Shown here one piece after another: positions 3,547 to 28,066 of a stretch of DNA of 64,000 nt. The notes below the pieces were generated by a model. That model was not told the DNA's origin, made no database searches, and was given only the letters and a program-made list of their open reading frames with translations. Source of the stretch: Bacteroidales bacterium (GTDB lineage: Bacteria; Bacteroidota; Bacteroidia; Bacteroidales; VadinHA17). The stretch's first letter is position 1. Every line of letters starts with the position of its first letter. A program made the position numbers and the translations under genes. The stretch covers positions 31,776 to 95,775 of the forward strand of contig JAVVEL010000002.1 in NCBI GenBank assembly GCA_032260385.1. Direction: 5' to 3'.

Positions 3547-3987
3547 ATGCTTAAAGTGGATTTTCATTCGCCGGACTTTCTTCCGGATTGTGGGCTTACC
3601 TTTGTAATAATTGGAGCCAGGTACAAAGGTAACTGGATCTTCATAAGGCATAAACACAGGAAGGCATATGAGCTTCCGGCAGGACATATCAATCATTCCG
3701 AGGAGGCTGGTGATGCGGCCAGGAGGGAGCTGGAGGAAGAAACAGGGGCATTGAAATACACTATTGAGTGTATTGCAACCTATACAGTAAGTGAAGATGG
3801 GAAGGCCAGGGCAGGAAGATTATATTATGCAGTGGTCAGGGCTATGAGTGAGGAAGTGGATGATAATGAAGTTGATGAAGTCTTATTATGCGGATCGCTG
3901 CCTCAGGAATTAAGTTTTCCCTATGTTCAGGCTGCCTTATTTGCTTACCTTGAAAAATATCATGCCCGTCAGATAAATTCAAGGTAG
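3547..3987 (+). CDS. NUDIX hydrolase
   Basis: Nudix box GHINHSEEAGDAARRELEEETGA. Confidence 0.8.
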   Translation: MLKVDFHSPDFLPDCGLTFVIIGARYKGNWIFIRHKHRKAYELPAGHINHSEEAGDAARRELEEETGALKYTIECIATYTVSEDGKARAGRLYYAVVRAMSEEVDDNEVDEVLLCGSLPQELSFPYVQAALFAYLEKYHARQINSR

Positions 3988-5150
3988 ACTTCCTTAAGCC
4001 AGTTTTCTTCAAGCATTGCAGCTATCTTCTTCACAACATTACGCCTTATTTCAAGATCAACCGGAAGGTTTGGATCCTGGTGTGCAATATTGATCCTGGT
4101 ACCAATGATGAACCTGATCTCATCTGATTCCATGAATAGCCTGACTATTTTATCAGCCGGACCCTTGCCGGGTTTGTGTTTTTTATAATTCCCAAGAATT
4201 TCGGCTACTTTTTGGAGGCTCAATATACCTTCGGTGACAAGGTCTATTCCTTCAATAAAACTTTCAGGCGGCAGTTCGGGATCTTCAAAAACCATATTGT
4301 CAGTTATTTCCTTTCCTGTTTCCCTTGCTATTATATCTGCTGTAGTGCCACCGCTGATAATTACTCTTCCGCTGAAATCCCTGACCTTTGCCGCAAGTGA
4401 CTTATCGTTTTCCTTTTCATAGGGAGGTCCCGTACACAGCAGCAGCTTCCTGGGCTCCCTGAAATATATCCCGGCGCAACTTGTATCGTCCCTTGAGCTG
4501 TATTCATCGTTCTTATGAGCCATGGTGATAATTTTTGAAGCCAGTTTACCTGCTGATATTGTCGGTTCGGATGATATTAACATCCTTGAGTAGCTTATTA
4601 AATTTTCCCTGCCCCATCCAAAGGGATAGCTTTCACTTCCCATTCCGCTCTGTACAACGCCATCGGTGCATGTTATTATCCTGTCCTCCTTCTCGGCCGT
4701 GAAAGAGCACGTGAGGAGCTGCCTGCCGGCATGCTTACCTTCAGTAAGCTCTACTTTCTTCCAGGATGGTTCGTATATTCCGGTGCCCCTGATTACTATG
4801 CAGGGAGGATTGTCAAACTCCAGAATGGTGACCCTTCCGTTAACTTCAATATCGATAATGGTAAAAGTGGCATAGCTGATCTTTCTCTCAGAACATACCG
4901 GCAAAGTATTCATTATAATGGATGCAATCTTTTCTACCTCCCTGTGTTCACGAGTAAAATTTAATGCCATGGTTGCACTGAGAGTCGCCAGGATATTTGC
5001 CTTTACACCATGACCCATGCCATCGGAAAGCACGGTAATAATTCGTCCTTCCTCCCTGATTCTTCTTGACAGAAAGACATCACCACAAATCTTCTCTTCA
5101 TGATGACTTCTCTGCTGGCAGTCAACTTCTATATGAAACTCCTTGTTCAC
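3969..5150 (-). CDS. PP2C/SpoIIE-family Ser/Thr phosphatase with a ~170-aa C-terminal domain of unknown function
   Basis: CGDVF...VLSDGMGHGVKA...DGV at the N-terminus. It is the last gene of the ferredoxin / HydS-PAS / phosphatase operon, with an 11-nt gap to the upstream gene. Confidence 0.8.
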   Translation of the reverse strand: MNKEFHIEVDCQQRSHHEEKICGDVFLSRRIREEGRIITVLSDGMGHGVKANILATLSATMALNFTREHREVEKIASIIMNTLPVCSERKISYATFTIIDIEVNGRVTILEFDNPPCIVIRGTGIYEPSWKKVELTEGKHAGRQLLTCSFTAEKEDRIITCTDGVVQSGMGSESYPFGWGRENLISYSRMLISSEPTISAGKLASKIITMAHKNDEYSSRDDTSCAGIYFREPRKLLLCTGPPYEKENDKSLAAKVRDFSGRVIISGGTTADIIARETGKEITDNMVFEDPELPPESFIEGIDLVTEGILSLQKVAEILGNYKKHKPGKGPADKIVRLFMESDEIRFIIGTRINIAHQDPNLPVDLEIRRNVVKKIAAMLEENWLKEVYLEFI

Positions 5151-5161
5151 CGGCCCTGGTA

Positions 5162-7036
5162 TTAATTCTGAGTCTTATTATCTTCCTTGTTTTTCCTGTA
5201 TGATTCCAGTATCGAATTAAGCATTTTTTCAGTTTCTGAAGCTCCCTCTCCGAGGAGGAAGCCTATTTTCTGAACCATATCGAGATTCTTTTCGATCACA
5301 TCATTGATCCGCATAATTATTTCTTCCCTCTGAACCTCCGGTGAAAACATATCGCGTAATACAGCCCCGGCTATCTTGCCCTTGCTTATCGGAAACACAG
5401 AAATGTTAAGCATCGTCTCGTTAAATCTTATGTCCCTGTTAACAACCGACTCATCCTGCCTCAGAGCATAGGTAAACATGTTATAGACATTGAAGGGCAG
5501 AATGGATTTAAGATCAGCGCCCTTTAGCCCCGGTATGATTTCTGAAATATTTACTGCATCCTCTCCTGCAATATTTATAAATGACTTATTTGAATGAATT
5601 ATCTTCAGGTTCTGGTCGACAATGACCACAGCCGAGGGAAGTTTTTCAAGCATTGAATTAACCGTTTCTGAAGCTTCCTGTGTCAGCTCTTTTTCCCTGC
5701 GTGCCTGAGTTTCCGATTCGCGGAGGGCTTTTTGGGTCTCTGACAATTTTTTATTTGTTATTCTCAGTTTTTCAATATACTCCTGTTTGTTCCTGATATT
5801 ATATTTGTGACACATCTCCGGGATTGTCAGTCCCATTGCCACCGTTACTGCAAAATCACGGCACGATTCGTAACCGCAGGCACCGCAGTTGTCTTCAATC
5901 CGGTCGCCTGTTCTTCCAATTATCCTCAGTACTTCATTAATGGCTGATTCGGGAGGTTCGGGGATTCTCTGATCATCAGCCCGAAATTTTCTTGAATAAT
6001 CAAGCACACTCCACTTCTTCATATCCTTTTCCCATTGCTCCCTGTCGAGTTCTTTAAGCCTTTTATCAGTGTAGAGCCTTACCAGGTTACGCCTCCTGTA
6101 CCTTTCGTTGTGATGGTCCATCCCGGGACCCAGCAGGCAACCCTGGCAAAAGAAAAGGTTGAAATGATGCTTTATGATGTCAATGTGGCTGTGAAAATCC
6201 TTTACCGCCTCGCTTATGTCATCTTTACCGGAAGCGGTAATAATGCCACTTTCCATAACATCACGCTTTATTCCTGCCGCATATATTATCCCCGAGGGTA
6301 TTGGAAATAAGGCCCCATAATTGCCGTATGGAGGATCGAAATCAGAATTTTTTACTTTTTTTTCTTCTATCCCTGCTTCTTCGAAAAGCTTCCTCAGTTC
6401 AATGAAGGTAAGAACCGAATCAATTGTGCCCTTGCCCTTCCCGCTTAATGCCTCGTCCTTGCTGTCAATACAGGGGCCAATGTAGATAAGGTTGGTAGCT
6501 TCACCATATTTCTCCCTGGCTATCATCCCGGTAGCGACCATGGGAGACACCAGGGGAGCAAGGTTTGACGCGAGCCCCGGATAGTATTTTTCAATCATCT
6601 TTACAATGACGGGGCAATTCGATGTAATATAATACTTACCCCGGGCTGATTCGAACAAGTCGCGGTAGAGTGCAGCAATTATGTCAACCCCGAAAGAAAC
6701 TTCGTGAACATGGTCAAAACCCAGTTGTCTCACCATCGCAACAAGCTTCCTGTAGTCGGTTATGTCATCAAACTCCGAGGCTATGCTGGGGGCAACCAGC
6801 GCAATATTTTTTTTTCCGTTCCTGAGTAATTTGAGCGTTTCTTCCGTTGAATCCCTGAATCTTACAGCCCCGGCTGAGCAGGCTATAAAACATAGTCCGC
6901 AGCCAATACACCTGTCAGGGATTATGGCAGGATGCTGATTGCCCGCCTTTACCTCGATGGCCTTAACCGGACAAACCCTGATACAACTGTATGAATCGGT
7001 GCATTTATCCTGGTCAATGTATATTATGGGCTCCAT
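5162..7036 (-). CDS. Sensory-type [FeFe]-hydrogenase-like protein with a C-terminal PAS domain (HydS/HfsB-like)
   Basis: N-terminal 2x[4Fe-4S] motifs (CTDSYSCIRVCP, CIGCGLCFIACS). H-cluster motifs TSNCP, GPCIDSKDE and FFCQGCLLGPG. A Cx2Cx4Cx16C motif at aa 384-409, a coiled coil, and a PAS-like segment at about aa 460-565. Confidence 0.85.
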   Translation of the reverse strand: MEPIIYIDQDKCTDSYSCIRVCPVKAIEVKAGNQHPAIIPDRCIGCGLCFIACSAGAVRFRDSTEETLKLLRNGKKNIALVAPSIASEFDDITDYRKLVAMVRQLGFDHVHEVSFGVDIIAALYRDLFESARGKYYITSNCPVIVKMIEKYYPGLASNLAPLVSPMVATGMIAREKYGEATNLIYIGPCIDSKDEALSGKGKGTIDSVLTFIELRKLFEEAGIEEKKVKNSDFDPPYGNYGALFPIPSGIIYAAGIKRDVMESGIITASGKDDISEAVKDFHSHIDIIKHHFNLFFCQGCLLGPGMDHHNERYRRRNLVRLYTDKRLKELDREQWEKDMKKWSVLDYSRKFRADDQRIPEPPESAINEVLRIIGRTGDRIEDNCGACGYESCRDFAVTVAMGLTIPEMCHKYNIRNKQEYIEKLRITNKKLSETQKALRESETQARREKELTQEASETVNSMLEKLPSAVVIVDQNLKIIHSNKSFINIAGEDAVNISEIIPGLKGADLKSILPFNVYNMFTYALRQDESVVNRDIRFNETMLNISVFPISKGKIAGAVLRDMFSPEVQREEIIMRINDVIEKNLDMVQKIGFLLGEGASETEKMLNSILESYRKNKEDNKTQN

Positions 7037-7050
7037 AGTTGCTTGTTTAA

Positions 7051-7305
7051 TTATATATTAATACCGGGCCTATCTTTAAGTATCATTTCGATATTGCCCT
7101 TCTTAATATCCCCTATAATATCATCATTAAACGAAATATTGGGTCCTTTCTGGCAATTGCCCAGGCAATGCGAGCCCTTGATAACAAGCTTGTCCCTGAG
7201 ATGATGCTTCTCAAGAAAGGAATTAAGCTCTTCTACAATATCTTTATTCCCCCGTGCAAAGCATGAACTGCCAAGGCATATCCTTATTTCATCAGGTTTT
7301 TTCAA
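7051..7305 (-). CDS. Small thioredoxin-like [2Fe-2S] ferredoxin (NuoE/HydC-fold)
   Basis: CLGSSC...CLGNC four-Cys pattern. TTG start at 7303-7305. First gene of the minus-strand operon. Confidence 0.7.
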   Translation of the reverse strand: MKKPDEIRICLGSSCFARGNKDIVEELNSFLEKHHLRDKLVIKGSHCLGNCQKGPNISFNDDIIGDIKKGNIEMILKDRPGINI

Positions 7306-7338: not shown

Positions 7339-7504
7339 ATCAAATAATCAATACTGCTTAAAGAATTGAATTACTTTTTAAGAGCTGCAGTAATTTCTAT
7401 TTATTATTTGGTGGCTAATTGCAGGTTTATTATCGAATTGAAGTCCTGGATATATTAATACATTATATATCAATAAAATAACATTAGTATATTTAGTTAT
7501 TTTG

Positions 7505-7524
7505 AGTGTTAATAAAATAACACT
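7505..7524. promoter_or_regulatory. Candidate Rex operator (perfect 7-bp inverted repeat)
   Basis: AGTGTTA-ATAAAA-TAACACT. The inner 18-mer GTGTTAATAAAATAACAC matches the clostridial/thermotogal Rex consensus TTGTTAAnnnnTTAACAA at 11 of 14 defined positions. It lies about 60 nt upstream of the hydC ATG, and a rex gene is in the same locus. Confidence 0.4.
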
Positions 7525-7553
7525 GTTTAATGCGTAACAATAAATATATTGTT

Positions 7554-7561
7554 TATATTTG
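7554..7561 (+). promoter_or_regulatory. -7 promoter box TATATTTG for the hydCBA operon
   Basis: Matches TAnnTTTG. It sits inside a 16-mer, ATTGTTTATATTTGTA (7548-7563), that is repeated identically at 15237-15252. Confidence 0.45.
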
Positions 7562-7581
7562 TAGTGCAAGAATATTTCCAT

Positions 7582-8061
7582 ATGAAAATGGATAAAAAAA
7601 CAAGGAATAATCCAGGTAAATATAAGACTTCCGGACGGAATGACCTGATAACTCTCTTACAGGAGATTCAGGCTGAAAAGGGGTTTATTTCTGAGGAATC
7701 AATTAAAGCACTTGGGGAGCTTCTTGGAATAAGCACCACCAAAATATACGGGGTAGCAAGTTTTTATGATGGTTTTCGCTTTTCGCCCGGGGGCAGGGTA
7801 TATATACGTCTATGTAAGGGAACAGCTTGCTATGTGAACAGGACTTTTAATATTGCTGAGCTTATATCGGAAGAGCTTAAGATCAAACCGGGTGAGACAT
7901 CACCTGACGGGAAGCTCAGTATTGAGATGGTCGATTGTATGGGGGCATGTCATCTAGGGCCCCTGATAGCCGTAAATGAAAGATATTATACAATAGGTTC
8001 AGAAAGAGAACTACGACAAATACTTGGGAGGATAAAGAAGGATGAGCAGTCAGTCGTCTGA
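7582..8061 (+). CDS. hydC: [FeFe]-hydrogenase NuoE-like [2Fe-2S] subunit
   Basis: CKGTAC...CMGAC pattern and NuoE-like LLQEIQAEKGFIS. I prefer the ATG at 7582 over the TTG at 7549 in the track. Confidence 0.85.
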   Translation: MKMDKKTRNNPGKYKTSGRNDLITLLQEIQAEKGFISEESIKALGELLGISTTKIYGVASFYDGFRFSPGGRVYIRLCKGTACYVNRTFNIAELISEELKIKPGETSPDGKLSIEMVDCMGACHLGPLIAVNERYYTIGSERELRQILGRIKKDEQSVV

Positions 8062-10003
8062 ATATAATGGTGGCGATAAGAGGAAATTCCTGATTGAAGA
8101 GGTACTCGCCAATCGCTCCGATACCGTAAGCAATGAAGTACAGGCCGTCCTTGATACAATCAGCAGGGCCAGTGCAGAGCTTCCAATTATCTCAGTGTCG
8201 TACAACAGTGGAAGTATTATTTCGGGTGCTGATAAAACTTATGAGGCTCTCGGTCAATATATACTTGATTATGGTGTGCAGGCTGATATTCTAAAAGGCG
8301 GATGGTCTGGCGCTACCAACTTTGACCCTGTAGTGACAATTAAGCTGCCGGGTAAAAACTGCTTATTCTTCAGGAATATTTATCCTGAGAAAGTGGAAAG
8401 CCTTCTGAGCAGTGTCCTGCACAGTGAGATCCCGGCGGATGACTTCCTGGGCCAGGAAGGAAAGAACAAGTCAGGAGAATGGCCCGGACTGGTCTACCTT
8501 TCAGATCATCCCTTCATGAAGTTTCAGAAAAGATGGCTACTGAGTGAGGGTGAACCGTATGAACCTGCAGATATTGAGTTATATATAGCGAATGGAGGAT
8601 ATAAAACCCTTGTAAAGACTCTTAATAGTTACACAATAGAAGAAGTGTGTGACATCATTGAAAAAAGTGGTTTAAGGGGAAGGAGCGGAAGTGGCTTTCC
8701 TACGGGGCGGAAATGGAAATATGCACAGGCTTCGGACTCTGAAGTAAAATATCTTGTCTGCAATGCCCGTGAGAGCGATCCGGGGGCCTTTACAGACAAG
8801 ATGCTGATAGAAGGACAACCACACAAACTGCTGGAAGGCATGGTAATAGCATCCTATGCCATGGGGGCATCAAAGGCTTTTATCTATACTCAAAACGGTG
8901 CTGATCATACAATCTCAGTATTAAAAGAATCCATAAAACAGGCTTACGATTACGGCCTGCTGGGTGATAATATCTTCGACAGCGGATTCAGACTGGATAT
9001 AGAAGTACGGGTTGATCCCGGAGCTTTTGTCTGCGGTGAAGAAACGGCCCTGGTGGGAAGCCTTGAAGGGCGAAGGGGCATGCCACAGGTAAAACCACCC
9101 TTTCCGTCGTCTTCGGGACTGAATAACTGCCCAACCATTATCAATAACGTGGAGACCCTTATGAATGTACCGCTAATTATGAAGAACGGCCCTGAATGGT
9201 TCAGTGAGGCAGGTACTCCCGGTAGTAAGGGAACCAAGGTATTCTGGCTCTCGGGTAAGTCAGCTCTGAAGGGGCTTATTGAGGTTGAAATGGGTACCTC
9301 ATTAAGGTCGGTTATAGAGGATACAGGTGATGGCATTGCTGGTGGTAAAGAATTGAAAGCCCTGTTGATAGGAGGAGTGTCAGGCTATCTTCTCCCCGAA
9401 AAAAAGATCGATATTGCCATTGATTATGAAGAATTGAAGAAGGCCGGAGCAGGAATGGGATCGGGCGGACTCCTTATAATTGATGAGAATACCTGCCTTA
9501 TTGATCTTTCGAGATACCAGATGGAATATATGCAGAACCAGAGCTGTGGGAAATGTATACCCTGCAGGGAGGGCACATCACGAATGTTTGAAATATTATC
9601 AGCTGTGGTTAAAAAACCACCTGTTGAATCGGCAATGACAACCCTTGAGAGGTTTAAGGGTGTAATGCAGCTTGAAAATATAGCGAAGGTAATGAAGGAA
9701 ACCTCCCTTTGCGGACTGGGCCAGAATGCACCCAACCTCTTTCTTTCTGTCCTGACCGATTTCAGGGATGAACTGGAAGAACATATTTTTGACCGTCGCT
9801 GCCGGGCAAATCGCTGCCACGGCCTTCGTACCTTTGTCATAGATGTTGATAAATGCACAGGGTGTACCCTGTGTGCTGAGAAATGCCCGGTAAATGCCAT
9901 TTACGGAACCAGGTTGCAGCCTTATTTTATTGTGGATGAAAAGTGTACCGGTTGTGGTATCTGCTATGATGTGTGCAAGTTTGATGCGGTTTCAGTAAAG
10001 TAA
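8042..10003 (+). CDS. hydB: [FeFe]-hydrogenase NuoF-like flavoprotein subunit
   Basis: Motifs RGRSGSGFPTGRKW, ESDPGAF and SCGKCIPCREG...LCGLGQ, plus C-terminal CTGCTLCAEKCP and CTGCGICYDVCK. It overlaps hydC by 20 nt. Confidence 0.9.
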   Translation: MSSQSSEYNGGDKRKFLIEEVLANRSDTVSNEVQAVLDTISRASAELPIISVSYNSGSIISGADKTYEALGQYILDYGVQADILKGGWSGATNFDPVVTIKLPGKNCLFFRNIYPEKVESLLSSVLHSEIPADDFLGQEGKNKSGEWPGLVYLSDHPFMKFQKRWLLSEGEPYEPADIELYIANGGYKTLVKTLNSYTIEEVCDIIEKSGLRGRSGSGFPTGRKWKYAQASDSEVKYLVCNARESDPGAFTDKMLIEGQPHKLLEGMVIASYAMGASKAFIYTQNGADHTISVLKESIKQAYDYGLLGDNIFDSGFRLDIEVRVDPGAFVCGEETALVGSLEGRRGMPQVKPPFPSSSGLNNCPTIINNVETLMNVPLIMKNGPEWFSEAGTPGSKGTKVFWLSGKSALKGLIEVEMGTSLRSVIEDTGDGIAGGKELKALLIGGVSGYLLPEKKIDIAIDYEELKKAGAGMGSGGLLIIDENTCLIDLSRYQMEYMQNQSCGKCIPCREGTSRMFEILSAVVKKPPVESAMTTLERFKGVMQLENIAKVMKETSLCGLGQNAPNLFLSVLTDFRDELEEHIFDRRCRANRCHGLRTFVIDVDKCTGCTLCAEKCPVNAIYGTRLQPYFIVDEKCTGCGICYDVCKFDAVSVK

Positions 10004-10008: not shown

Positions 10009-11724
10009 ATGCTGATAACTATAGAAGTAAACAGAAAGAAACTGAAGGCTGAAAAGGGAGAGACAATCCTCAAGGCACTGAACAGGAATGGTATAAACAT
10101 ACCCACCCTCTGTCGCCTCAGGGGTCTTACACCAACGGGAGCATGCAGGATCTGTGTCGTGGAGGTGGAAGGGGAGGATATGCTTGTTACAGCCTGTTCT
10201 GAACCTGTAAGGGAATGGATGAAGATAAAAACTCATTCTCCCAGGGTTATCAGGGCAAGAAAGTCTATAGTAGAATTGTTGCTCTCAAATCATCCTGACA
10301 ATTGCCTGTACTGTGACAGGAATCTTAACTGTGAATTACAGAGCTTAGCCGGTGAGCTCAACATCCGGGAACGCCGTCTGAGTGGCAATAAACTGACTCT
10401 CAAACTGGACCAGTCAAGCCCTGCCATAACAAGAGAATTGTCAAAATGTATCTTATGTGGCCGCTGTGTTCGTATTTGTGAGGAAGTGGTGGGGGTAAAT
10501 ACCCTGGATTTTATCGGAAAGGGAAGGACAACACATATAGGCACCACAATGGATAAGGATTTTAATTTTTCCAGTTGCATACATTGTGGTCAGTGTGTCA
10601 CTGTATGTCCTACCGGTGCTCTCCATGAAAAACACAATATAAGGGAGGTCCAGGATTACCTCACAAAGAAAGACACACTTAAGGTAATCCAGTTTTCTCC
10701 CCTGGTGGCCTTCTCTGTTGCCCGGGAGATGGGCTTAAAGTATTCTCAGAACTTTGATAAGAAGCTCAGTGAGGCGCTTGTCCGGATAGGCTTTGACAGG
10801 GTTTATTACGCAGGTTTTGGTTCCGATATAATGATAAATGAATTGACGGAGCAGCTGGTAAATAATAAGGCCGGTAAATTGAACCAGACTATTTATACTT
10901 CCCATTGCCCTGCATGGGTGAAATATGCCGAACAATTTATGCCCGGTCTTCTTGAAAAGTTATCTGATTTGAAGTCGCCTCAACAAATTACAGGAGCCCT
11001 GATTAAAACCCTGGTAAGCGCCAGGGAGGAAGTAAGTCCTGAAAATATATATTCTGTGTCAGCCACCCTCTGTACGGCGGCCAAGTATGAAGCCAGGCGG
11101 GATGTAATGACAAGAAAGGGAATAAGCGATATAGAAACCATACTGACAGTGCGTGAACTGGTACAGCTACTGAAACTTTATGGTATAAATATGGATATGC
11201 TTGACGGAAGAAATATTGATGAACCACTGAACCTTTCCAGTTTCTCGGCTTTAATAACCGAGGTTTCCGGGGGTCTGACAGAGGCACTTGTAAAAAATAT
11301 TGCCCGGGACAAGGGCTTTGAGCTCTCTGCTTCTGATATAAGGAAATTAAGAACGGCAGGCGATTTCAGGGAACTTATGATAAGAGCCGGGGAACATGAG
11401 TACAACTTTGCTCTTGTGGATGGTCTTACCGGGCTTGATAAGCTCAGTAACAGGATGGGATCAGTTCATTATGACCTGGTTGAAATAATGGTCTGCCAGT
11501 CAGGATGCGTCAATGGAGGAGGGGTTAACAGTGATGAGAACGGTGAGTCAGTAAGGGACCGTATTAAGATGGTATATAAAAGTGAAGGAAATACTGCTAT
11601 CAGCATGCCAATGGATAATCCGGCACTCAGAAATTTTTATGAAAAATGGCTACCCTTTGATAAAGACTTGTCAGATAAAAAGATATTCAAAAACAAATAT
11701 TCAAAAAAGAACGTCCTTCTATGA
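10009..11724 (+). CDS. hydA: CpI-architecture (M3-type) [FeFe]-hydrogenase large subunit with non-canonical H-cluster environment motifs
   Basis: N-terminal 2Fe-2S (CRLRGLTPTGACRIC), His-ligated and 2x[4Fe-4S] motifs, then TSHCPAW, TLCTAAKYE and EIMVCQSGCVNGGG. The C-terminal tail resembles a small-subunit domain. Confidence 0.9.
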   Translation: MLITIEVNRKKLKAEKGETILKALNRNGINIPTLCRLRGLTPTGACRICVVEVEGEDMLVTACSEPVREWMKIKTHSPRVIRARKSIVELLLSNHPDNCLYCDRNLNCELQSLAGELNIRERRLSGNKLTLKLDQSSPAITRELSKCILCGRCVRICEEVVGVNTLDFIGKGRTTHIGTTMDKDFNFSSCIHCGQCVTVCPTGALHEKHNIREVQDYLTKKDTLKVIQFSPLVAFSVAREMGLKYSQNFDKKLSEALVRIGFDRVYYAGFGSDIMINELTEQLVNNKAGKLNQTIYTSHCPAWVKYAEQFMPGLLEKLSDLKSPQQITGALIKTLVSAREEVSPENIYSVSATLCTAAKYEARRDVMTRKGISDIETILTVRELVQLLKLYGINMDMLDGRNIDEPLNLSSFSALITEVSGGLTEALVKNIARDKGFELSASDIRKLRTAGDFRELMIRAGEHEYNFALVDGLTGLDKLSNRMGSVHYDLVEIMVCQSGCVNGGGVNSDENGESVRDRIKMVYKSEGNTAISMPMDNPALRNFYEKWLPFDKDLSDKKIFKNKYSKKNVLL

Positions 11725-13706
11725 ATTCAGTGGGGAGAAACAGGCAATTGGTTTATACACGCAGGGAACTTTGCAGAACATGTTATACTTGTGTGAGGGA
11801 ATGTCCTGCCAAAGCCATCAGGATAGAAAACGGACAGGCAGAGGTAATACACGAAAGGTGTATTGCCTGTGGAAATTGTACCAAGGTTTGCAGCCAGGGA
11901 GCAAAAGTCTTCATGTGGACAAAGGATATAGTGGAGGAGATACTTAAATCAGGAAAGACGGCAGCGATAGTGGCACCAAGCTTTCCTGCCGAGTTCAATG
12001 ACCTTTCCGACCACAGCTTCCTTGTCTCGATGATAAGGGCACTGGGTTTCAGTTATGTAAGTGAGGTTGCCTTTGGTGCTGATCTTGTTGCCGACTGCTA
12101 CCGTCAACTTCTGAACGAATGTGACAGGAAGTATTATATTTCCTCTGACTGCCCTTCAATAACGAGATTTATTAAATATTATCATCCTGACCTGACAGAC
12201 AGCCTTGCCCCCGTGGTATCCCCGATGGTGGCAATGACCAGGGCCATGAGGAAGCTGTACGGACAGGATCTTAGGATTGTCTTCATCGGACCATGCGTGG
12301 CAAAAAAAGATGAAAGTACAGAGGTTGACGAGGCCCTTACTTTTACTGAACTGAGATCTATGTTTGAAGAGAGAGGTATAAGTCCTGAGACTGTTATACC
12401 AGCTGAATTTGATCCCCCCCTGGGAGGCAAGGGAGCCATTTTCCCCGTAGCCAGGGGTTTGCTCCAGACGGCAGGTATTAATGATGATGCCGTTTCGGGA
12501 AATATAATAGCCGCTGAAGGAAGAACAGCCTTCCAGGAGGCTATTAAAGAATTTGAGGAAGGGCAGGTTCATGACCAGCACCTTGAGCTGCTTTGCTGCA
12601 TGGGTTGTATTATGGGACCGGGATTTACTGACCGCGGAAAATATTATAACCGCAGAACTCATGTAAGCAGCTATGCCCGCAAAAAGCTTGATTCAATGGA
12701 TCACAGGCAATGGAAGGAAGCCTTCATTAAAATGAATGATCTTGACCTTTCAGTTAAGCATGAACCGGATGACAGGAGACTGGAAAACCCCGGAAGGTTT
12801 GAGATTGAAAACGTCCTGAGACAGATGGGAAAAAACAGTATCAAAGATCATTTGAACTGTGGTGCCTGCGGATATGAGACATGTATTGAACATGCTGTGG
12901 CAATAAGCAAGGGACTGGCAGAGGTTGAGATGTGCCTGCCATTTACAATAGAACAGCTGCACAGCTCGGTGAATGATCTGGCGCTTTCAAATGAGAAGCT
13001 GAGTTCAATGAAGCAGGCTCTGAGACAATCGGAAAAACTTGCCCATATGGGTCAGCTATCTGCCGGTATAGCTCACGAGCTGAACAATCCTCTCGGAGTG
13101 GTAATAATGTACAGTAATATATTACTGGAAGAATGTGCAGAAGATGACCCTTTAAGGGATGACCTGAACCTGATTACCGAGCAGGCGGCCAGATGTAAAA
13201 AGATTGTTTCAGGACTGCTCAATTTTGCAAGGAAGAGCCAGGTAAACCATGATTATGCCAACCTGAATGAAGTCATTAAACAAAGCATCGAGTCACTTAT
13301 AATACCGGAAGGTATCGATTTAAAAATTGAGGATAAATCAAATAATCCTTCGGTTATGGTGGATACTGAACAGATGATACAGCTTATCTCAAACCTGCTT
13401 AAAAACTCGGTGGATGCAATGAAGGGAAGGGGGAACCTGAGAATTACCCTGGAAGATTCCGGCAAAAACGTCACCTTGAAGGTCTGGGATAACGGGCCCG
13501 GCATAGACGAGGATAAAAGAGAAAAAATATTTGAACCCTTCTTCACTACCAAGGAGACAGGCAGCGGTACAGGCCTGGGACTGGCAACTGCCTATGGTAT
13601 AGTGAAGATGCATAAGGGCCAGATAAAGGTCGATTCAAACAGCGATCCCGAAAAAGGCCCTACATTTACACAATTTATTATAAGCATACCAAGGACAAAT
13701 GAATAA
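11721..13706 (+). CDS. Sensory-type [FeFe]-hydrogenase domain fused to a histidine kinase (HisKA + HATPase_c)
   Basis: 2x[4Fe-4S] N-terminus. H-cluster motifs [14 protein letters not shown] and [12 protein letters not shown] Cx2Cx4Cx16C motif at aa 380-405. H-box AHELNNPL, N-box [15 protein letters not shown] and GSGTGLGLA. There is an ATGA overlap with the hydA stop. Confidence 0.85.
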
Positions 13707-14091
13707 GAAGATTACAGTTTTTGTTGTTGATGACGACCCGGATTACCTTTTTCAAACGGTAGTCCACCTTGAAAAAGCGGGATATAATGTTATTAGCGCT
13801 GTGAGTCAAAAAGAAGCCGAGGATATCATAGATACGGTAAAACCGGATATTGCATTGTTTGACCTTATGATGGAACAGGATGACAGTGGTTTTATACTTT
13901 GCTATAAACTGAAGAAAAAATATCCGGATCTGCCCGTAATAATTGCTACCTCTGTCTCCAGGGAGACAGGCCTGTCTTTCGGCCTGGATTCGGAGGAGGA
14001 AAGAAGGTGGATAAAGGCAGATGCTTACCTTGAAAAGGGAGTACGGGCTGATCAGCTTAACGAAGAAATTAAACGTCTGTTAAAAATTTGA
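13699..14091 (+). CDS. Stand-alone response-regulator receiver protein
   Basis: VVDDD, FDLMM (phospho-Asp), IIATS and EKG motifs. No output domain. It overlaps the upstream kinase gene by 8 nt. Confidence 0.85.
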   Translation: MNKKITVFVVDDDPDYLFQTVVHLEKAGYNVISAVSQKEAEDIIDTVKPDIALFDLMMEQDDSGFILCYKLKKKYPDLPVIIATSVSRETGLSFGLDSEEERRWIKADAYLEKGVRADQLNEEIKRLLKI

Positions 14092-14092: not shown

Positions 14093-15229
14093 ATGGCTGA
14101 ACTAAAGATATTGATAGTGGATGATGAAGCCGGAATCAGATCAGGTGTCAGCAGGATTTTGAACAGGTTCAGGGTAAACTATCCTTTTATGGATGAAGTC
14201 TATACTTTTAAGGTGATTGAGGCTGAGACAGGTGAAAAGGGTATTGAGATAATTGACACTGAAAGGCCTGATATAGTATTGCTTGATAATAAACTTCCAG
14301 GAATTTCCGGCGTTGAAGTGCTTGACTATATTAAGCAGAAAAATTATGACATAGTTGTGGCGATGATTACATCTTATGCATCGCTTGATGTGGCATTGAG
14401 GGCTACAAGGGACGGAGCCACCGACTTTATACCCAAACCATTTACACCCCAGGAACTTAAATCCTCGATCGAGAATATAAGCAAGCAGCTGTATCTTAAA
14501 AGGATAACAAGCAGTATGAATGAGGAAGGAAAGAAGATCCGGTTCAGGTTCCTGTCGGTTTTGTCACATGAGCTTAAGTCGCCCCTGAATGCCGTGGAAG
14601 GATATCTGTATATGATGAGGGACCGCGAAGCAGGAGACAATATGAACGATTATACACCCATGATCGAAAGATCAATACAGCGCATACAGGGAATGCGTAC
14701 CCTGATCATGGATCTGCTCGATTTTACCAAGATAAGACTGGAAGTGAAGAAAGATAAGGTGCTTGATTTAGATCCTGCCTTGATTATGAAACAATGTATA
14801 GAAACTATTAATCCACTTGCCATACAGAAAGATGTCTCAATAGTAATTGATAAAAAGTCAGATATCATAATATCAGCAGATGAGGAGGATATAAATATCA
14901 TCTTCAACAACCTGCTTTCAAATGCGGTGAAGTATAACAAAGAGGGGGGTAGTATTTTTATTACAATCGACAGAAAAGTGAACGACGCTGTAATAGAAGT
15001 GAAAGACACTGGCATTGGAATAAGCAGTGAAGACCAGCAGGTTCTTTTTAATGAGTTCGTACGGATCAAAAATGATAAAACACGGAATATTACCGGAAGC
15101 GGACTGGGTTTGTCTATAGTGAAAAAGATCGTCGCTTTGTATAATGGTTCGATAACAGTCGACAGCAGGCCTGACGAAGGAAGCGTTTTTACATTGAAAC
15201 TTCCAATCCGGCAGGAAAAAGGAGGATAA
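14093..15229 (+). CDS. Hybrid receiver-histidine kinase (REC-HisKA-HATPase_c)
   Basis: IVDDE...LLDNKLPG receiver, SHELKSPLN H-box, NLLSNAVKYN, DTGIGI and GSGLGLSIV. Confidence 0.85.
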   Translation: MAELKILIVDDEAGIRSGVSRILNRFRVNYPFMDEVYTFKVIEAETGEKGIEIIDTERPDIVLLDNKLPGISGVEVLDYIKQKNYDIVVAMITSYASLDVALRATRDGATDFIPKPFTPQELKSSIENISKQLYLKRITSSMNEEGKKIRFRFLSVLSHELKSPLNAVEGYLYMMRDREAGDNMNDYTPMIERSIQRIQGMRTLIMDLLDFTKIRLEVKKDKVLDLDPALIMKQCIETINPLAIQKDVSIVIDKKSDIIISADEEDINIIFNNLLSNAVKYNKEGGSIFITIDRKVNDAVIEVKDTGIGISSEDQQVLFNEFVRIKNDKTRNITGSGLGLSIVKKIVALYNGSITVDSRPDEGSVFTLKLPIRQEKGG

Positions 15230-15272: not shown

Positions 15273-15893
15273 ATGAAAGAACTACCAGGAAAAACTGTTG
15301 AAAGGCTGAGTGGTTACCGCAGGAATCTTCTGGGCTACCTGTCTGCCGGTAATAGTTATATCTACTCCCATGAGCTGGCTGCCCTGCTTCATATTACGGC
15401 AGTGCAGGTAAGAAGAGACCTGATGCTTATAGGCTATTCCAGTGTTCAGAAAAAAGGCTATGATGTAAAGGAGCTCATTGATACCATAGCTTCAATAATT
15501 GATTCTGAACAAGGCCAGAATATTGCAGTAATAGGCATTGGAAATCTCGGCCGCGCAATAACTTCCTATTTCAAGGGTAAAAGATCCAAACTCAATATTG
15601 TTGCTTCATTCGACAATGACCCACAGAAAGTCAACAGGGTAATAGCCGGAGTTAGATGCTATCCTGTTGAACAAATGGAGCATATTGTGGCAGAACAGAA
15701 TATCACGATTGCCTTGCTTACCATACCTCCCGATTTTGCCAGGCCTGTTGCCGATGCAGCCATAAGGGCCGGGATAAAAGGCATCCTGAATTTTACAACC
15801 GTTCCGCTAAATGTGCCACCAAATGTCTATCTTGAAGAGTATGACATGATTACGTCAATAGAGAAAGTTGCATATTTTGTAAAAGAAGGATAA
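15273..15893 (+). CDS. rex: Redox-sensing transcriptional repressor Rex
   Basis: N-terminal winged helix (RLSGYRR...VQVRRDL), a Rossmann motif IGIGNLGRA, and GIKGILNFT. Confidence 0.85.
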   Translation: MKELPGKTVERLSGYRRNLLGYLSAGNSYIYSHELAALLHITAVQVRRDLMLIGYSSVQKKGYDVKELIDTIASIIDSEQGQNIAVIGIGNLGRAITSYFKGKRSKLNIVASFDNDPQKVNRVIAGVRCYPVEQMEHIVAEQNITIALLTIPPDFARPVADAAIRAGIKGILNFTTVPLNVPPNVYLEEYDMITSIEKVAYFVKEG

Positions 15894-15908: not shown

Positions 15909-16835
15909 ATGAAAGTATATTATGGATTGGAGGAGGTGGAGAAAATAAAGAATCCTGTTATTACAACAGGTACCTTCGATGGTGTGCATTTTGGGCATAA
16001 GACCATCCTCGGAAGAATCAAAAAACTTGCTGAACAATATGAGGGAGAATCAGTCCTCATAAGTTTCTATCCCCATCCCCGCAAGGTGCTTTATCCTTCT
16101 ACGGAAGGTAAGTGCCTCCATTTGATAACAACTCTGGATGAGAAAATAGACCTACTTGAAAAAGAGGGACTCGATAACCTTATCCTGCTTGAATTTACCA
16201 AAGAATTTGCAAGGGTATCAAGCAGTGAATTCATTGAAAAATATATATCTTCCAAACTCCGGCCCAGGGTGATTGTTGTTGGGTATAACCACCATTTTGG
16301 ACACAACAAGGAAGGTAATTACCAGTACTTAAAGTCAATATCTGCCTTGTATGGCTTTGATACTGAAGAGATTCCCGAACAGGAAGTGCTGAATGAGACG
16401 GTGAGTTCAACGCAAATAAGAAAGGCACTGGTCGAAGGATATATTCAAAGGGTAAACGCCTATCTCGATCACTTTTATTTTATTAGCGGCTCACCCGGAA
16501 AGTGGGAACCGGATACTCATCTTAATGACCATACCGGAATAGTGCTGAGGATTGATGATGAGGATAAACTTCTTCCACGTCAGGGTGCTTACGCCGTGAG
16601 TGTCCCCGGGGATGGGTCCAAAACACACGGGCTGGCTTTTATCCCGCAAAAAACGGAAGGAAGAAGAGAGGTGGCAATTATTTTATTCGAAAACTTTTCT
16701 CCGGGCATTAATATTACCCACAGGTTAAGGATTAATTTTCATAAAAGGATGGACGGTAAAATACAGTTTGATTCACCTGAATCATTACGGGTTCCTGAGA
16801 AGTTAATCAATGATACCATGGAACTTATTTATTGA
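15909..16835 (+). CDS. ribF: RibF-like FAD synthetase with an apparently degenerate riboflavin-kinase domain
   Basis: The N-terminal half has GTFDGVHFGH and SSTQIR. The C-terminal half aligns with the kinase fold (GAYAV...) but lacks the G-x-x-LGFPTAN motif. Confidence 0.7.
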   Translation: MKVYYGLEEVEKIKNPVITTGTFDGVHFGHKTILGRIKKLAEQYEGESVLISFYPHPRKVLYPSTEGKCLHLITTLDEKIDLLEKEGLDNLILLEFTKEFARVSSSEFIEKYISSKLRPRVIVVGYNHHFGHNKEGNYQYLKSISALYGFDTEEIPEQEVLNETVSSTQIRKALVEGYIQRVNAYLDHFYFISGSPGKWEPDTHLNDHTGIVLRIDDEDKLLPRQGAYAVSVPGDGSKTHGLAFIPQKTEGRREVAIILFENFSPGINITHRLRINFHKRMDGKIQFDSPESLRVPEKLINDTMELIY

Positions 16836-16919: not shown

Positions 16920-18344
16920 ATGAAATTCAATCCCGAAAAATTATCAATAAGGGATCAGAGGATGAAAGCCTTCATTGATCCTGATGAAATCTGGAATATA
17001 ATAAACAACACAAAGCCGGACAGGCAAAGGGTGAAGGAGGTAATAGCCAAATCGCTTGACAAGAACAGGCTGACCCTGGAAGAAACGGCTGTGCTTATAA
17101 ATGCTGACGACCCCGGCTTGATTGAGGAGATAAAGGCCGGGGCACGCGCCCTGAAGGAAAAAGTGTACGGAAACAGGATCGTTCTCTTTGCTCCCTTATA
17201 TATAGGTAATTTTTGCAGCAATAATTGCCTGTACTGTGGTTTCAGGTCAAGTAACACCGAGGCCGTGAGAAGGACACTGACCGATGATGAGATAGTTAAA
17301 GAAGTATCGGCACTTGAGGATAACGGGCAGAAGCGCCTTATCCTGGTTTACGGTGAGCATGCCAAATATTCAGCTGAATACATAGCACATACCGTGAAAC
17401 TGGTTTATGGAGTCAAAAAGGGCAGGGGTGAGATAAGGAGGGTAAACATCAATGCTGCTCCACTTGATATAGAGGGCTTCCGAACAGTAGGTGAAGCAGG
17501 TATAGGGACTTACCAGATCTTCCAGGAAACATATCATCCTGAAGCTTATAAATGGTATCACCTTGCCGGCAAAAAGAGCGATTATGACTGGAGGCTGACA
17601 GGTCTTGACAGGGCACAGGAGGCAGGAGTTGATGACGTAGGCATTGGCGCCTTATTCGGATTGTATGACTGGCGTTTCGAAGTGCTGGGCCTGGTACGTC
17701 ATACAAACCACCTGGAGGCATGCTATAATGTGGGCCCCCACACAATCTCATTCCCGAGGCTCAAGGATGCCGCCACAATAAATATGAACAGGAATTTTGA
17801 AGTGAAAGATGATGAATTCAAGCGACTTGTGGCTATACTCAGACTGGCTGTGCCCTATACGGGTATGATACTGACAGCAAGGGAGAGCCATGATGTGAGA
17901 AGGGAAGTGATAAAGTATGGCGTTTCCCAGATTGACGGCGGTACAAAAATTGAACTTGGCTCATATTCTGATCTTAAGAATGAGCAGCAGAACCTTAACA
18001 GGGAACAGTTCATGATCAATGATGCCAGGTCGCTGGCTGAAGTGATTGACGAATTGCTCGATGATAACTTTATACCTTCTTTCTGTACCGCATGCTACAG
18101 GCTGGGAAGAACAGGAGAACATTTCATGGAGTTTTCCGTAGCCGGATTTATAAAAAGATATTGCTCACCTAATGCTGCACTTACCCTCGCAGAATACCTG
18201 GTCGATTATGCAGATGAACAGCTTGCTGAAAAAGGATGGAGGGCAATAGACCGGGGACTGGCAGCCTTAGATGAAGATGTAGCATTAAAAACAAAGGAGA
18301 GAATTGAAAGGATAAAGCAGGGTGATAGAGATCTTTATTTTTAA
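16920..18344 (+). CDS. hydG: [FeFe]-hydrogenase H-cluster radical-SAM maturase HydG
   Basis: CSNNCLYCGF radical-SAM motif and C-terminal CTACx22C (CTACYRLGRTGEHFMEFSVAGFIKRYC). Confidence 0.9.
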   Translation: MKFNPEKLSIRDQRMKAFIDPDEIWNIINNTKPDRQRVKEVIAKSLDKNRLTLEETAVLINADDPGLIEEIKAGARALKEKVYGNRIVLFAPLYIGNFCSNNCLYCGFRSSNTEAVRRTLTDDEIVKEVSALEDNGQKRLILVYGEHAKYSAEYIAHTVKLVYGVKKGRGEIRRVNINAAPLDIEGFRTVGEAGIGTYQIFQETYHPEAYKWYHLAGKKSDYDWRLTGLDRAQEAGVDDVGIGALFGLYDWRFEVLGLVRHTNHLEACYNVGPHTISFPRLKDAATINMNRNFEVKDDEFKRLVAILRLAVPYTGMILTARESHDVRREVIKYGVSQIDGGTKIELGSYSDLKNEQQNLNREQFMINDARSLAEVIDELLDDNFIPSFCTACYRLGRTGEHFMEFSVAGFIKRYCSPNAALTLAEYLVDYADEQLAEKGWRAIDRGLAALDEDVALKTKERIERIKQGDRDLYF

Positions 18345-18364: not shown

Positions 18365-18892
18365 ATGGCAAAAATAGTAGCAATAAGGGTAATAGACAGG
18401 ATAAAGGAGGCAGGACACACACAGGATGTTCTGAGTAAGCATTCTTCAATAATTAAAACACGGCTCGGCTTTCATGAACTAAATGAGGACAGATGCAGCA
18501 GGGAAGGCTATATTTTGCTTTATCTCAGGGATAATGCGAAGGGGCGGAGTGACTTTTTGAAGGATCTCGATAAGATTTACGGCATCGAGATAAAGGAAAT
18601 GAACCTGCTTGCCGGGCCGGTTAAGCCTGCTTCCATCCCTGACGGATCTGCCGTTACCGTGGTGGGCTTGGTGGTAAATAACAGGTCAGATATTGCCAGT
18701 GAAGTCCAGCGAGCACTCACCTTATACGGTTGTACAATAAGAACACGTATGGGTATCAATGAAGAAGACCATGGCCACGACACCGGTCTTATCCTGCTGG
18801 AGCTTAAGGGCGATAATTCAGAGATGAACAGTCTGCTAAAACGGCTGGAACAAATTGAAAACGTAATTGTTGGAGTTATCTCCTTCAGTTGA
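18365..18892 (+). CDS. Tandem TM1266-like (ACT/NikR-C-like) putative iron-only hydrogenase system regulator
   Basis: Two ~80-aa halves share a beta-alpha-beta pattern (VAIRVIDR...TRLGF...GYILLYL and VVGLVVNN...TRMGI...GLILLEL). It lies directly after hydG, as TM1266-family genes do. Confidence 0.5.
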   Translation: MAKIVAIRVIDRIKEAGHTQDVLSKHSSIIKTRLGFHELNEDRCSREGYILLYLRDNAKGRSDFLKDLDKIYGIEIKEMNLLAGPVKPASIPDGSAVTVVGLVVNNRSDIASEVQRALTLYGCTIRTRMGINEEDHGHDTGLILLELKGDNSEMNSLLKRLEQIENVIVGVISFS

Positions 18893-20208: not shown

Positions 20209-21324
20209 TCATTTACCTTCTTCTTTCTGCCTGCGCAAATAATGTAGTGAATCACCCCATTCACCATAGCCCGGCTCCGCGTTAACCTCCCTCAGTCCCA
20301 TCGTCAGGTTTTTAATAAAATCATCCAGTGAGTCACCTGTGAGCGGTTTGTTTTCATAGAGATAATAATCGTCGCGGTAGAGGCCCGGGGTTATATTGGG
20401 CATTATAACATTTGCACCTATGCTGACAGCTTTTTCCCTGCCCTTTGGATCTATTGCCTGCAGGGCTGTGGATGCAGCTATATTGATGTCTTTCATAAGT
20501 ACCCGTAACACTGCTATCATCTTCAGGGAAAGATCGAAGCGGTCTGCAAGGGGGAGAAGCTCATCCTTATATTTTGCCAGCGGTGTACCGGAGTGCTCAA
20601 TGTAAGGGCCCATACCGACCATATCGATATCAAATTTTTTCATAAAGAGAAGGTCGGCTGCAAGATCTTCATAGGTCTGGAAGGGCAGGCCTATCATCAC
20701 ACCTGTGCCCGCATGGTACCTGAGCCTCTTTAAGGTGTGGAGACATTCCAGCCTCCTGTGATAACTGTGCAGTTCATCATCCGGGTGCAGCTTTGCATAT
20801 AGCCCGGGATTGGATGCTTCAATACGGAGCAGGTACCTGTGAGCACCTGCTTCATACCATTCGCGGTAAACTTCCTCGCTCTGTTCTCCCAGGGAAAGTG
20901 TAATACCCAGCCTGCCATCCGAAAGGTCCTTTATTGATTTCAGCAGGCGTGTTACCCTGAATGTAAAAGATGGATTACTCCTCTCACCCGACTGTAAAAC
21001 TATCGACCCGAAATTATTTTCAAATGCATAACGGGCAGCGTCCAGTACTTCTTTGTCGCTAAGGGTATATCTTTTGAATTTTTTATTATCCCTGCGAATG
21101 CCGCAATAGAGGCAATTCTTTTCACAGACATTTGATAATTCTATTAATCCCCTGAAATAAACCTTATTGCCGGAATATTTATGCTTTAAGCGGGCTGACT
21201 CCCTGAAAAGTTCATCCCTGTCATCCCCTTCGGTCCTGAGCAGTCTTATTATTTTATCCGCATCAAACTTTTTACCCTTCAATATGTCTTTTATCATGCT
21301 TCTCATTCTCTTTATTGGGATCAC
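20209..21324 (-). CDS. hydE: [FeFe]-hydrogenase H-cluster radical-SAM maturase HydE
   Basis: CEKNCLYCGIRRDN motif and a BioB-like fold pattern. The true start may be one of the internal Met residues at aa 7 or 10. Confidence 0.8.
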   Translation of the reverse strand: MIPIKRMRSMIKDILKGKKFDADKIIRLLRTEGDDRDELFRESARLKHKYSGNKVYFRGLIELSNVCEKNCLYCGIRRDNKKFKRYTLSDKEVLDAARYAFENNFGSIVLQSGERSNPSFTFRVTRLLKSIKDLSDGRLGITLSLGEQSEEVYREWYEAGAHRYLLRIEASNPGLYAKLHPDDELHSYHRRLECLHTLKRLRYHAGTGVMIGLPFQTYEDLAADLLFMKKFDIDMVGMGPYIEHSGTPLAKYKDELLPLADRFDLSLKMIAVLRVLMKDINIAASTALQAIDPKGREKAVSIGANVIMPNITPGLYRDDYYLYENKPLTGDSLDDFIKNLTMGLREVNAEPGYGEWGDSLHYLRRQKEEGK

Positions 21325-22204: not shown

Positions 22205-22305
22205 ATTATCCGCCAGGTCGGCAATAATAATTATCATTGCATGATTTGTTTGAATTTTATACATTGGCCATCAGTTCAAACCATTTGCTGACTAAGAATA
22301 ACACT

Positions 22306-28062: not shown

Positions 28063-28066
28063 GAAT

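Follow-up and report, generated by a model that had tools for sequence, protein, structure and literature searches.

Can an [FeFe]-hydrogenase subunit that is encoded with NuoE- and NuoF-like partners still be a hydrogenase in the ordinary sense when the residues of its canonical proton relay are gone? This question is raised by hydA, a gene located within 64,000 nucleotides of the Bacteroidales bacterium contig JAVVEL010000002.1 (positions 31,776 to 95,775 of the forward strand; assembly GCA_032260385.1). This whole stretch of DNA is referred to here as the window. The product of hydA is an M3-type HydA/BfuA homologue that has lost both the Cys299 relay and Lys358. It is probably functional, but not as a conventional, high-turnover, H2-evolving HydA. 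The favoured explanation, to which a probability of only about 0.4 is given, is that the protein provides a slow H-cluster site, with the cluster bound in a remodelled pocket, electrons exchanged with HydBC, and protons supplied by a non-canonical route.

The domain order of HydA, as assigned by Pfam, is a Fer2_4 [2Fe-2S] domain, a NADH-G_4Fe-4S_3 domain (the NuoG-type His/Cys [4Fe-4S] site), a 2x[4Fe-4S] domain, and the H-domain, Fe_hyd_lg_C (PF02906, E = 2.5e-55). This M3 architecture is the same as that of CpI of Clostridium pasteurianum and of bifurcating HydA. A phmmer search of the PDB gives T. kivui HydA1 (8a6t_A, 2e-115) as the best match, followed by A. woodii HydA1, T. maritima HydA, and CpI. 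An AlphaFold2 model, made with 60 family members as input, also has 8a6t_A as its top match in Foldseek; its H-domain has predicted local distance difference test (pLDDT) values of 80 to 94, and its N-terminal, cofactor-dependent part is poorly modelled. There are 19 Cys residues in the protein, each at a cluster-ligand position. All F-cluster ligands are present, as are the four ligands of [4Fe-4S]H (C300, C355, C496, and C500 in the protein's own numbering), which agrees with the conservation of C300, C355, and the CxxxC pair reported in a preliminary description of this DNA. With the H-domain fold and these four Cys, HydA is a member of the [FeFe] hydrogenase superfamily.

Residues are otherwise given in CpI numbering; the protein's own numbering is identical to about residue 423 and is then shifted by -3. 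The preliminary description had arrived at this near-identity by hand, and an offset would have undone most of what follows. However, the HMMER alignments with four PDB relatives are all gap-free from about 208 to about 365, and two MAFFT alignments with CpI give the same register, with the stretches from the FGxD anchor (about 270) to L1 and from L1 to L2 both ungapped. Thus, there is no offset. At positions 299, 279, 319, 282, and 286, the protein indeed has His, Leu, Ser, Gln, and Asn, and the earlier readings of L1 as TSHCPAW and of L2 as TLCTAAKYE, with T353, L354, and A358, are also correct. In addition, H565 and H569 of CpI, near the C-terminus, are both Lys.

Not every substitution is equally telling. 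The Lys in L2 had been regarded as K358 shifted by one position. However, CpI itself has K358-K359, and among representatives of clusters formed at 50% identity, K359 is retained in 60 of 62 canonical proteins and in 38 of 43 that lack K358. Since K359 is kept with or without K358, the surviving Lys is simply the orthologous K359. Two other residues were read correctly but are weak evidence: S232L, because canonical A3 representatives mostly have Ala232 (together with Thr268), and M353T, because T353 is also found in the active enzyme CpII (PMC5506873). The substitutions that carry weight are those at C299, E279/E282/R286, S320/H569, K358, P354, and F417-G418. As the preliminary description held, loss of the relay is otherwise a property of sensory groups C and D (PMC10055695, PMC8163306), and the present gene is confirmed to lie in a hydC-hydB-hydA operon.

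This HydA is not the singular oddity that it first seemed, but part of a large lineage, and since its residue pattern recurs and is conserved in a clade, chance is no explanation. Neither C299 nor K358 occurs in any of the best 120 database relatives (59-87% identity), which come from Bacteroidales/Bacteroidota metagenome-assembled genomes (MAGs). Scanning one genome per species yielded 562 relatives, and hundreds of species-level genomes of uncultured environmental Bacteroidales carry the non-canonical state. The relatives of a 587-residue variant (P0038) are likewise all environmental MAGs. The loci of the best 80 of the 562 relatives were detailed, and nearly all of them share a gene order of about 12 genes: on the minus strand, a PP2C phosphatase, HydS-PAS, and a small thioredoxin-like (Trx-like) ferredoxin; on the plus strand, hydC, hydB, hydA, a hydS-histidine kinase fusion (hydS-HK), a response regulator, a hybrid response regulator-kinase, rex, ribF, and hydG. 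Two H2-sensor-type proteins and Rex are therefore syntenic with the operon in almost all 80 loci.

HydA exists in three states in these loci. In state (i), that of the window and of an 87%-identical relative, HyVt-32, the motifs are TSHCPAW / TLCTAAKYE / GGGV. State (ii), in 60 loci of 53-61% identity, is [IV][ST]ACPAW / TPC[MIT]AMKFE / G[AG]G[LM]. State (iii), in 18 loci of 46-48% identity, is SSCCPGW / [MT]PCTAKKFE / GGGQ; here E282 and R286 are kept, E279 is mostly Gln, and positions 320 and 569 are Thr and His instead of the Asp and Lys of the window HydA. A neighbour-joining tree (Poisson-corrected p-distances, CpI root, 100 bootstraps) makes (i) and (ii), the derived clade, monophyletic in 100/100 bootstraps and (iii) paraphyletic. 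Therefore, C299 and K358 were lost during the history of the operon. His299 is present in 10/10 close relatives (P0001-P0010) and also turns up in four clusters at 50% identity, but it is a subclade trait. Because the larger sister clade (ii), in the same operon, has Ala299 in 57/61 and tolerates V/S/T/N/Y/L as well, His299 is not the family's solution, contrary to the earlier idea of an alternative His-based relay.

The non-canonical state also extends to more distant relatives. Of the 124 representatives at 50% identity that cover the key sites, 62 are canonical and 39 lack both C299 and K358, with all four Cys ligands present in 34 of the 39. Ranks 2-22 of the representative search are non-canonical clusters. 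In the representatives P0135 (44% identity) and P0136 (41%), HydA is positioned after hydC-hydB, as in the window, and the contig of P0136, the longer of the two, carries the whole operon of hydC, hydB, hydA, hydS-HK, response regulator, hybrid response regulator-kinase, rex, and ribF.

With TIGR02512, the NCBIfam model for group A, HydA scores 306.9 bits, under the curated cut-off of 405.95. A clade (ii) protein (L003, 348.9 bits) also fails, whereas two from clade (iii) pass (L062, 435.4; L078, 460.0). Neither the group A L1 motif TSCCPxW nor the L2 motif MPCxxKxxE is matched, although C300, C355, and E361 are present. Compared with the L3 motif ExMxCxxGCxxGGGQ, the window sequence EIMVCQSGCVNGGGV has the E, the M, and both Cys, and its last Q is Val. 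The best NCBIfam match, NF040763 ('NADH-dependent group A6'), reaches 523.6 bits against a cut-off of 765. The NCBI annotation of the relatives is generic, which fits the failure of derived-clade HydA with TIGR02512; the JGI name is 'iron-only hydrogenase group A'. The surroundings of the gene are those of a Bfu-type HydABC, with adjacent NuoE- and NuoF-like genes and a HydB that has flavin mononucleotide (FMN), [4Fe-4S], and C-terminal 2x[4Fe-4S] sites, but the window HydB lacks the complete BfuB cluster set, which includes an N-terminal [2Fe-2S]. As for the sensory groups C and D, HydA has their combination of absent relay and non-Cys 299, but not the iron-sulfur (PF04060), PAS, or HisKA domains of the kind found in both HydS neighbours. 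Finally, it is not of the HylA type, which is marked by loss of the H-cluster motifs and by a formate dehydrogenase gene. The earlier suspicion that the HydCBA module is not a conventional H2-evolving hydrogenase is thus upheld, in that a conventional fast enzyme is unlikely: the relay and K358 are gone, and the protein fails a model that orthologues with C299 and K358 pass.

The H-domain of hydA is under purifying selection. Between the window and the 87%-identical locus L001, the H-domain has a ratio of nonsynonymous to synonymous substitution rates (dN/dS) of 0.159 and the F-domain one of 0.086, at a dS of about 0.5. In clade (ii) (n = 61), the new pocket states are near-fixed: T353, M358, and E418 are each found in 58/61, A417 in 50/61, and K359 in 61/61. 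E418 is shared with the window HydA. The unaltered residues of the [2Fe] pocket, P324, Q325, G421, G422, R449, and M497, are conserved in this clade as well. Overall, the pocket columns of the sister clade have a conservation of 0.89, versus an H-domain average of 0.72 (P = 0.0004), and the five altered pocket positions average 0.93 (P = 0.019). In contrast, the former relay positions 279, 282, and 286 are down to 0.47, 0.58, and 0.44. Because the pocket columns are conserved while 279/282/286 drift, the conclusion is that the relay has been abandoned and that the pocket is still constrained, in its new state.

What might such a pocket do? In the favoured explanation, HydA would be the BfuA/HydA subunit of a HydABC-type NADH-/ferredoxin-linked complex, descended from an ordinary group A3 bifurcating HydA that lost its equipment for fast catalysis within one operon lineage: C299-E279-E282-R286, S320/H569, K358, M353, and F417-G418. 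The H-cluster would still be bound, in a less polar pocket whose substitutions, as crude hand arithmetic suggests, roughly cancel in residue volume. The site would act as a slow hydrogenase, with kinetics like those of sensory HydS, and electrons would pass between it and the flavin/iron-sulfur core of HydBC via the intact F-clusters. Of the possible elements of a new proton route, the candidate base in the window subclade is His299, beside the ligand C300; E418, common to the entire derived clade, is a second candidate. A slow site is favoured because all F-cluster ligands and the four [4Fe-4S]H ligands are kept, the HydBC core is intact, and the altered pocket is conserved and under purifying selection, and also because the sensory-like signature at 299, 353, and the relay belongs to HydS enzymes, which bind the H-cluster and are slow (PMC10055695, PMC8163306, PMC10407848). 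The presence of hydG, hydE, a TM1266-family gene, the sensors, and Rex beside the operon is in keeping with a module whose ties to H2 and NADH persist.

Several observations weigh against a slow H-cluster site. K228 of CrHydA1, which corresponds to K358, is described as extremely well conserved, and assembly of the H-cluster fails in its variants (PMC9516953). K358 is retained even by the sensory TmHydS (GPCIAKK, read from published mutagenesis primers), but not by the window HydA. In the wider family, as sampled by the representatives, position 299 is S/F/A/N/G/H and position 358 is A/R/E/Q/M/G/S; there is no single convergent new pocket at depth, and the case for one shared new chemistry is the weaker for it. 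HydS-HK, the neighbour with S232, D299, and K358, could be the only client of the maturases. Lastly, with HydB and the F-domain as yardsticks, the derived clade shows an H-domain evolution about 1.5-2 times faster than that seen in orthologues bearing C299 and K358: mean pairwise identities of the F-domain, H-domain, and HydB are 87.5%, 62.6%, and 76.3% within (ii) and 74.5%, 59.1%, and 61.3% within (iii).

The main alternative is a pseudo-hydrogenase without [2Fe], in which the H-domain would hold [4Fe-4S]H only and HydA would be an electron-transfer subunit like HylA. This alternative is somewhat doubtful but serious. Under it, and just as tentatively, the HydABC of the window could be a plain NADH/ferredoxin module or could need an H2-reactive partner, the obvious candidate being the co-transcribed and translationally coupled HydS-HK, whose intact D299, S232, and K358 and 4-bp overlap with the hydA stop would suit that role. 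The case rests mainly on two points: group A scaffolds are reported not to assemble the H-cluster once K358 is lost (PMC9516953), and positions 299 and 358 vary widely at depth, with Phe299 and Glu358 among the states. It also gains from the alteration of both usual cyanide-partner side chains (K358A and S232L), from the faster evolution of the H-domain relative to its partners, from the failure with TIGR02512, and from the precedent of HylA, which is homologous to HydA and sits in a Bfu complex but does not act as a hydrogenase (PMC6085437, PMC9304861). However, unlike HylA, the window HydA has the four H-cluster Cys and the L3 spacing, and the conservation of M497, Q325, P324, G421-G422, and R449, as well as of the altered pocket residues themselves, also weighs against this alternative. 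Furthermore, the conserved operon has no gene for an enzyme acting on a third substrate, and the H-domain has a dN/dS of 0.16. This last value, together with a pocket conservation above background, led to rejection of a pseudogene. Indeed, that the domain is dead and drifting, or that the hand alignment was mis-registered, is highly improbable: the open reading frame (ORF) is intact, four gap-free alignments and MAFFT agree on the register, and the state is common to hundreds of species-level genomes. What could be cited for decay is that no other part of the operon's structural genes evolves as fast as the H-domain and that hydA is interrupted at one locus, L070 (UBA5621).

At the other extreme, HydA could be a fully competent confurcating/bifurcating hydrogenase with another proton path, using His299 as a base proximal to the azadithiolate and/or E418 with waters. 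The HydBC core is intact, and H299 is invariant in its subclade and recurrent elsewhere. Non-Cys relays can function, as in CpI C299D and in TamHydS, a group D enzyme with a Glu-based alternative path from the position of CpI V423 (PMC10055695, PMC10407848); S230 and T353 also occur in the active, uptake-biased CpII (PMC5506873); and the distal cyanide contact is not intrinsically essential to catalysis by CrHydA1 (PMC9516953). Nevertheless, this is unlikely, because position 299 of the sister clade, within this same operon, is Ala and accepts many other residues, and because the characterised relay-less enzymes are all slower by orders of magnitude (PMC8163306; bioRxiv 10.64898/2026.09.22.753672). 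In addition, L279, Q282, and N286 replace the relay, D320 and K569 replace residues of the proposed proton-entry motif E278/S320/H569 (bioRxiv 10.64898/2026.09.22.753672), and K358 is missing. A further idea, also improbable, is that the HydABC scaffold has turned regulatory, with a non-catalytic or sensor-grade HydA coupling the NADH/NAD+ and ferredoxin pools electronically to the HydS-histidine kinase. If so, the cell would gauge the pressure of H2 against its internal redox state, in effect a thermodynamic comparator of the feasibility of confurcation. In a weaker form of this idea, the protein may be a natural [FeFe] site that keeps its diiron subcluster without the Lys358 anchor.

The genes that surround hydA, and the motifs within it, are listed in Table 1.

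Table 1. Features of the hydA locus and motifs of HydA (nucleotide positions in the window; residues in CpI numbering)
Feature	Residues	Position	Strand	Basis or remark
PP2C/SpoIIE phosphatase		3969..5150	-	Pfam, synteny
HydS-PAS-type H-domain protein, ITSNCPVI / GPCIDSKDE		5162..7036	-	Pfam, motifs, synteny
Small Trx-like [2Fe-2S] protein		7051..7305	-	Pfam, synteny; divergent sensor module 3969..7305
hydC, NuoE-like thioredoxin-fold [2Fe-2S] subunit		7549..8061	+	PF01257, 1.7e-39
hydB, NuoF-like FMN/NADH subunit, [4Fe-4S] site, C-terminal 2x[4Fe-4S] ferredoxin domain		8042..10003	+	Pfam
hydA, M3-type HydA/BfuA homologue, 571 aa		10009..11724	+	ATG start, ORF and Pfam
SPLVA	230-234			S232L; direct reading
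Former proton-relay helix NELTEQLVNN (CpI MEEATELVQR)	277-286	10837..10866	+	E279L, E282Q, R286N; E278 kept
L1 YTSHCPAW (canonical FTSCCPGW)	296-303	10894..10917	+	H299 codon 10903-10905; ligand C300 kept
SDLKSPQ	319-325			S319 kept, S320D
L2 TLCTAAKYE (canonical MPCTSKKFE)	353-361	11065..11091	+	M353T, P354L, K358A; C355, K359, E361 kept
Pocket loop TEVSGGL (CpI FGATGGV)	417-423	11257..11277	+	F417T, G418E, V423L
L3 EIMVCQSGCVNGGGV		11482..11526	+	CpI M497, C499, C503 kept; Q509V
hydS-HK, sensory-type H-domain, FeS motif, HisKA/HATPase		11721..13706	+	Pfam, motifs, synteny
Response regulator		13699..14091	+	Pfam, synteny
Hybrid response regulator-histidine kinase		14093..15229	+	Pfam, synteny
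rex, redox-sensing repressor		15273..15893	+	Pfam, synteny
ribF-like FAD synthetase		15909..16835	+	Pfam, synteny
hydG maturase		16920..18344	+	TIGR03955, 490.8 bits (cut-off 312)
TM1266/CPF_0552-family putative hydrogenase-system regulator		18365..18892	+	NF052672, TIGR03959
hydE maturase		20209..21324	-	TIGR03956, 318.9 bits (cut-off 254.6)

The structural genes are closely packed. The start of hydB overlaps hydC, whose true start may be an ATG near 7582, and hydA begins 5 nt past the end of hydB. The start of hydS-HK overlaps the hydA stop by 4 bp (ATGA), and the response regulator gene overlaps hydS-HK by 8 bp; these overlaps place hydA, hydS-HK, and the response regulator in one operon. 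The PDB matches of HydB are NiFe-HydB (7t2r_B, 1.5e-157), NfnB, and HydB. Its [4Fe-4S] site motif, SCGKCxPCREG, is present. In its N-terminal Trx-like domain (8042-8650), however, the four [2Fe-2S] Cys are all replaced (…YNSGSIISGA…KGGWSGATNFDPVV…), a loss that is lineage-wide in the Bacteroidales operon and is found with all three HydA clades, including (iii).

The two sensor-type proteins differ at the positions in question. HydS-HK has the motifs APSFP / ISSDCPSI / GPCVAKKDE, that is, S232, Asp299, and K358-K359, and Asp299 (ISSDCPSI) is present in every orthologue inspected. Asp is the sole tolerated replacement of Cys299 in prototypical [FeFe] hydrogenases (PMC10055695). HydS-PAS also lacks K358 and keeps K359; in its orthologues, position 358 is S/A/I/H. 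Two of the three H-domain proteins of the cluster, HydA and HydS-PAS, are thus without the canonical Lys that anchors cyanide. The 175-residue product of 18365-18892 combines a CPF_0552-family N-terminal part with a C-terminal part like TM1266, the 'iron-only hydrogenase system regulator'; its gene sits between hydG and, past a saccharopine-dehydrogenase-like gene, hydE. Within the 64 kb window, no hydF, other hydrogenase, or formate dehydrogenase gene was found.

The intergenic region between hydS-PAS and hydC (7470-7525) contains a direct repeat, AATAAAATAACA(T/C)T, in two copies about 38 bp apart, which may be a binding site for a regulator. A scan for Rex operators with the Firmicute consensus gave matches no commoner than in shuffled sequence, and the promoter region of hydC had none. 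Elsewhere in the window are a 2-oxoacid:ferredoxin oxidoreductase set (POR_N, TPP_enzyme_C, and POR gamma; 26992-29423), an ADP-forming acyl-CoA synthetase (22237-24366), and a proline racemase-family gene (973-2016). Together, these suggest a fermentation of amino acids and 2-oxoacids that yields reduced ferredoxin.

There are a few exceptions to the synteny among the 80 loci. The interruption of hydA at L070 (10001-11690) reflects a frameshift or an assembly error. hydS-HK is not present at L025 and L052, and neither sensor module is present at L076. Two contigs with a Bacteroidales-type operon are binned to other phyla, L014 to a Chloroflexota MAG and L064 to a Thiohalospira MAG; mis-binning is most likely, rather than gene transfer. 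The first-ranked hit of the representative search, P0133, is a predicted protein of 4122 aa with seven H-domains, six of them nearly identical and repeated in tandem every 444 aa, and canonical L2 and L3. It is probably eukaryotic or an assembly artefact, unconnected with the present finding.

The derived clade is widespread in environmental Bacteroidales and, as far as the literature searched shows, unstudied: no published description of it was found there, and a full-text search for 'TSHCP' with 'hydrogenase' returned nothing relevant. Its genes are likely to be scored as those of group A3 H2 producers in metagenomic hydrogenase surveys, and for environmental Bacteroidales of fens, sediments, and digesters this would overstate the potential for H2 production if the clade is slow, sensory, or without [2Fe]. 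The clade also serves as a natural experiment for two questions that mutagenesis addresses only with difficulty: the need for the contact between Lys358 and the distal cyanide, given that K228 variants of CrHydA1 do not assemble, and the delivery of protons to the H-cluster without the Cys299 relay. For both, the series of orthologues in the same operon, from C299/K358 through Ala299/Met358 to His299/Ala358, offers ready-made controls.

Comparison with characterised systems puts the window HydA nearest to the HydABC enzymes of group A3 (T. kivui, 8A6T; A. woodii, 7Q4V; T. maritima, 7P5H), which are its closest matches in sequence and fold. It shares with them the M3 order with all F-cluster ligands and a hydC-hydB-hydA operon encoding a core of FMN and C-terminal 2x[4Fe-4S], and it is derived phylogenetically from C299/K358-bearing orthologues in the same cluster. 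Unlike them, it has TSHCPAW in place of TSCCPxW and TLCTAAKYE in place of MPCxxKxxE; E279, E282, R286, S320, and H569 are replaced, F417-G418 is Thr-Glu, and Q509 is lost; it falls under the group A cut-off of its hidden Markov model; and its HydB lacks the N-terminal [2Fe-2S] ligands. Some care is deserved here, since L1 varies in active enzymes too. HydA1 of A. woodii (7q4v_A) is a bifurcating enzyme of proven activity, and its L1 aligns as TSCSPGW, so that Ser stands where the ligand C300 would be; according to a paper on Hydrogenedentota, A3 enzymes commonly have Ser there. A 'group A3' subunit of B. thetaiotaomicron with 0.22% of the activity of CrHydA1 (PMC12578642) was also considered, but a link to the present clade was not established, and it is not used as evidence.

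With the sensory enzymes of group C (TmHydS) and group D (TamHydS), HydA shares the absence of Cys299, a small residue at 353, the lack of a canonical relay, and a hydrogenase-regulatory neighbourhood. Among group C sequences, which have no relay, 17% carry Cys and 43% Ala at position 299, and Gly, Ser, or Thr occupies position 353; even so, TmHydS holds an H-cluster, with slow turnover (PMC10055695). However, HydA differs from both enzymes in having the full M3 N-terminus and HydBC partners and in keeping M497; it lacks PAS and kinase domains as well as the C-terminal Cx2Cx4Cx16C cluster, and it does not belong phylogenetically to group C or D. HylA, the HydA homologue of HylABC-FdhF2 that is thought to serve in electron transfer only (PMC6085437, PMC9304861), resembles it in belonging to a complex like HydABC and in departing from the L1-L3 motifs. 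In HylA, though, the H-cluster motifs are gone and the partner is a formate dehydrogenase, whereas the window HydA keeps the four cluster Cys and has no other catalytic partner in its operon. CpII, the uptake-biased but active enzyme of C. pasteurianum, shares S230 and T353 with the window HydA and T268 with the sister clade, and Thr is in fact the most frequent natural replacement of M353; CpII differs in being monomeric and in keeping the L1-L3 motifs, that is, C299 and K358 (PMC5506873). The loss of K358 sets the window HydA apart from every characterised enzyme checked.

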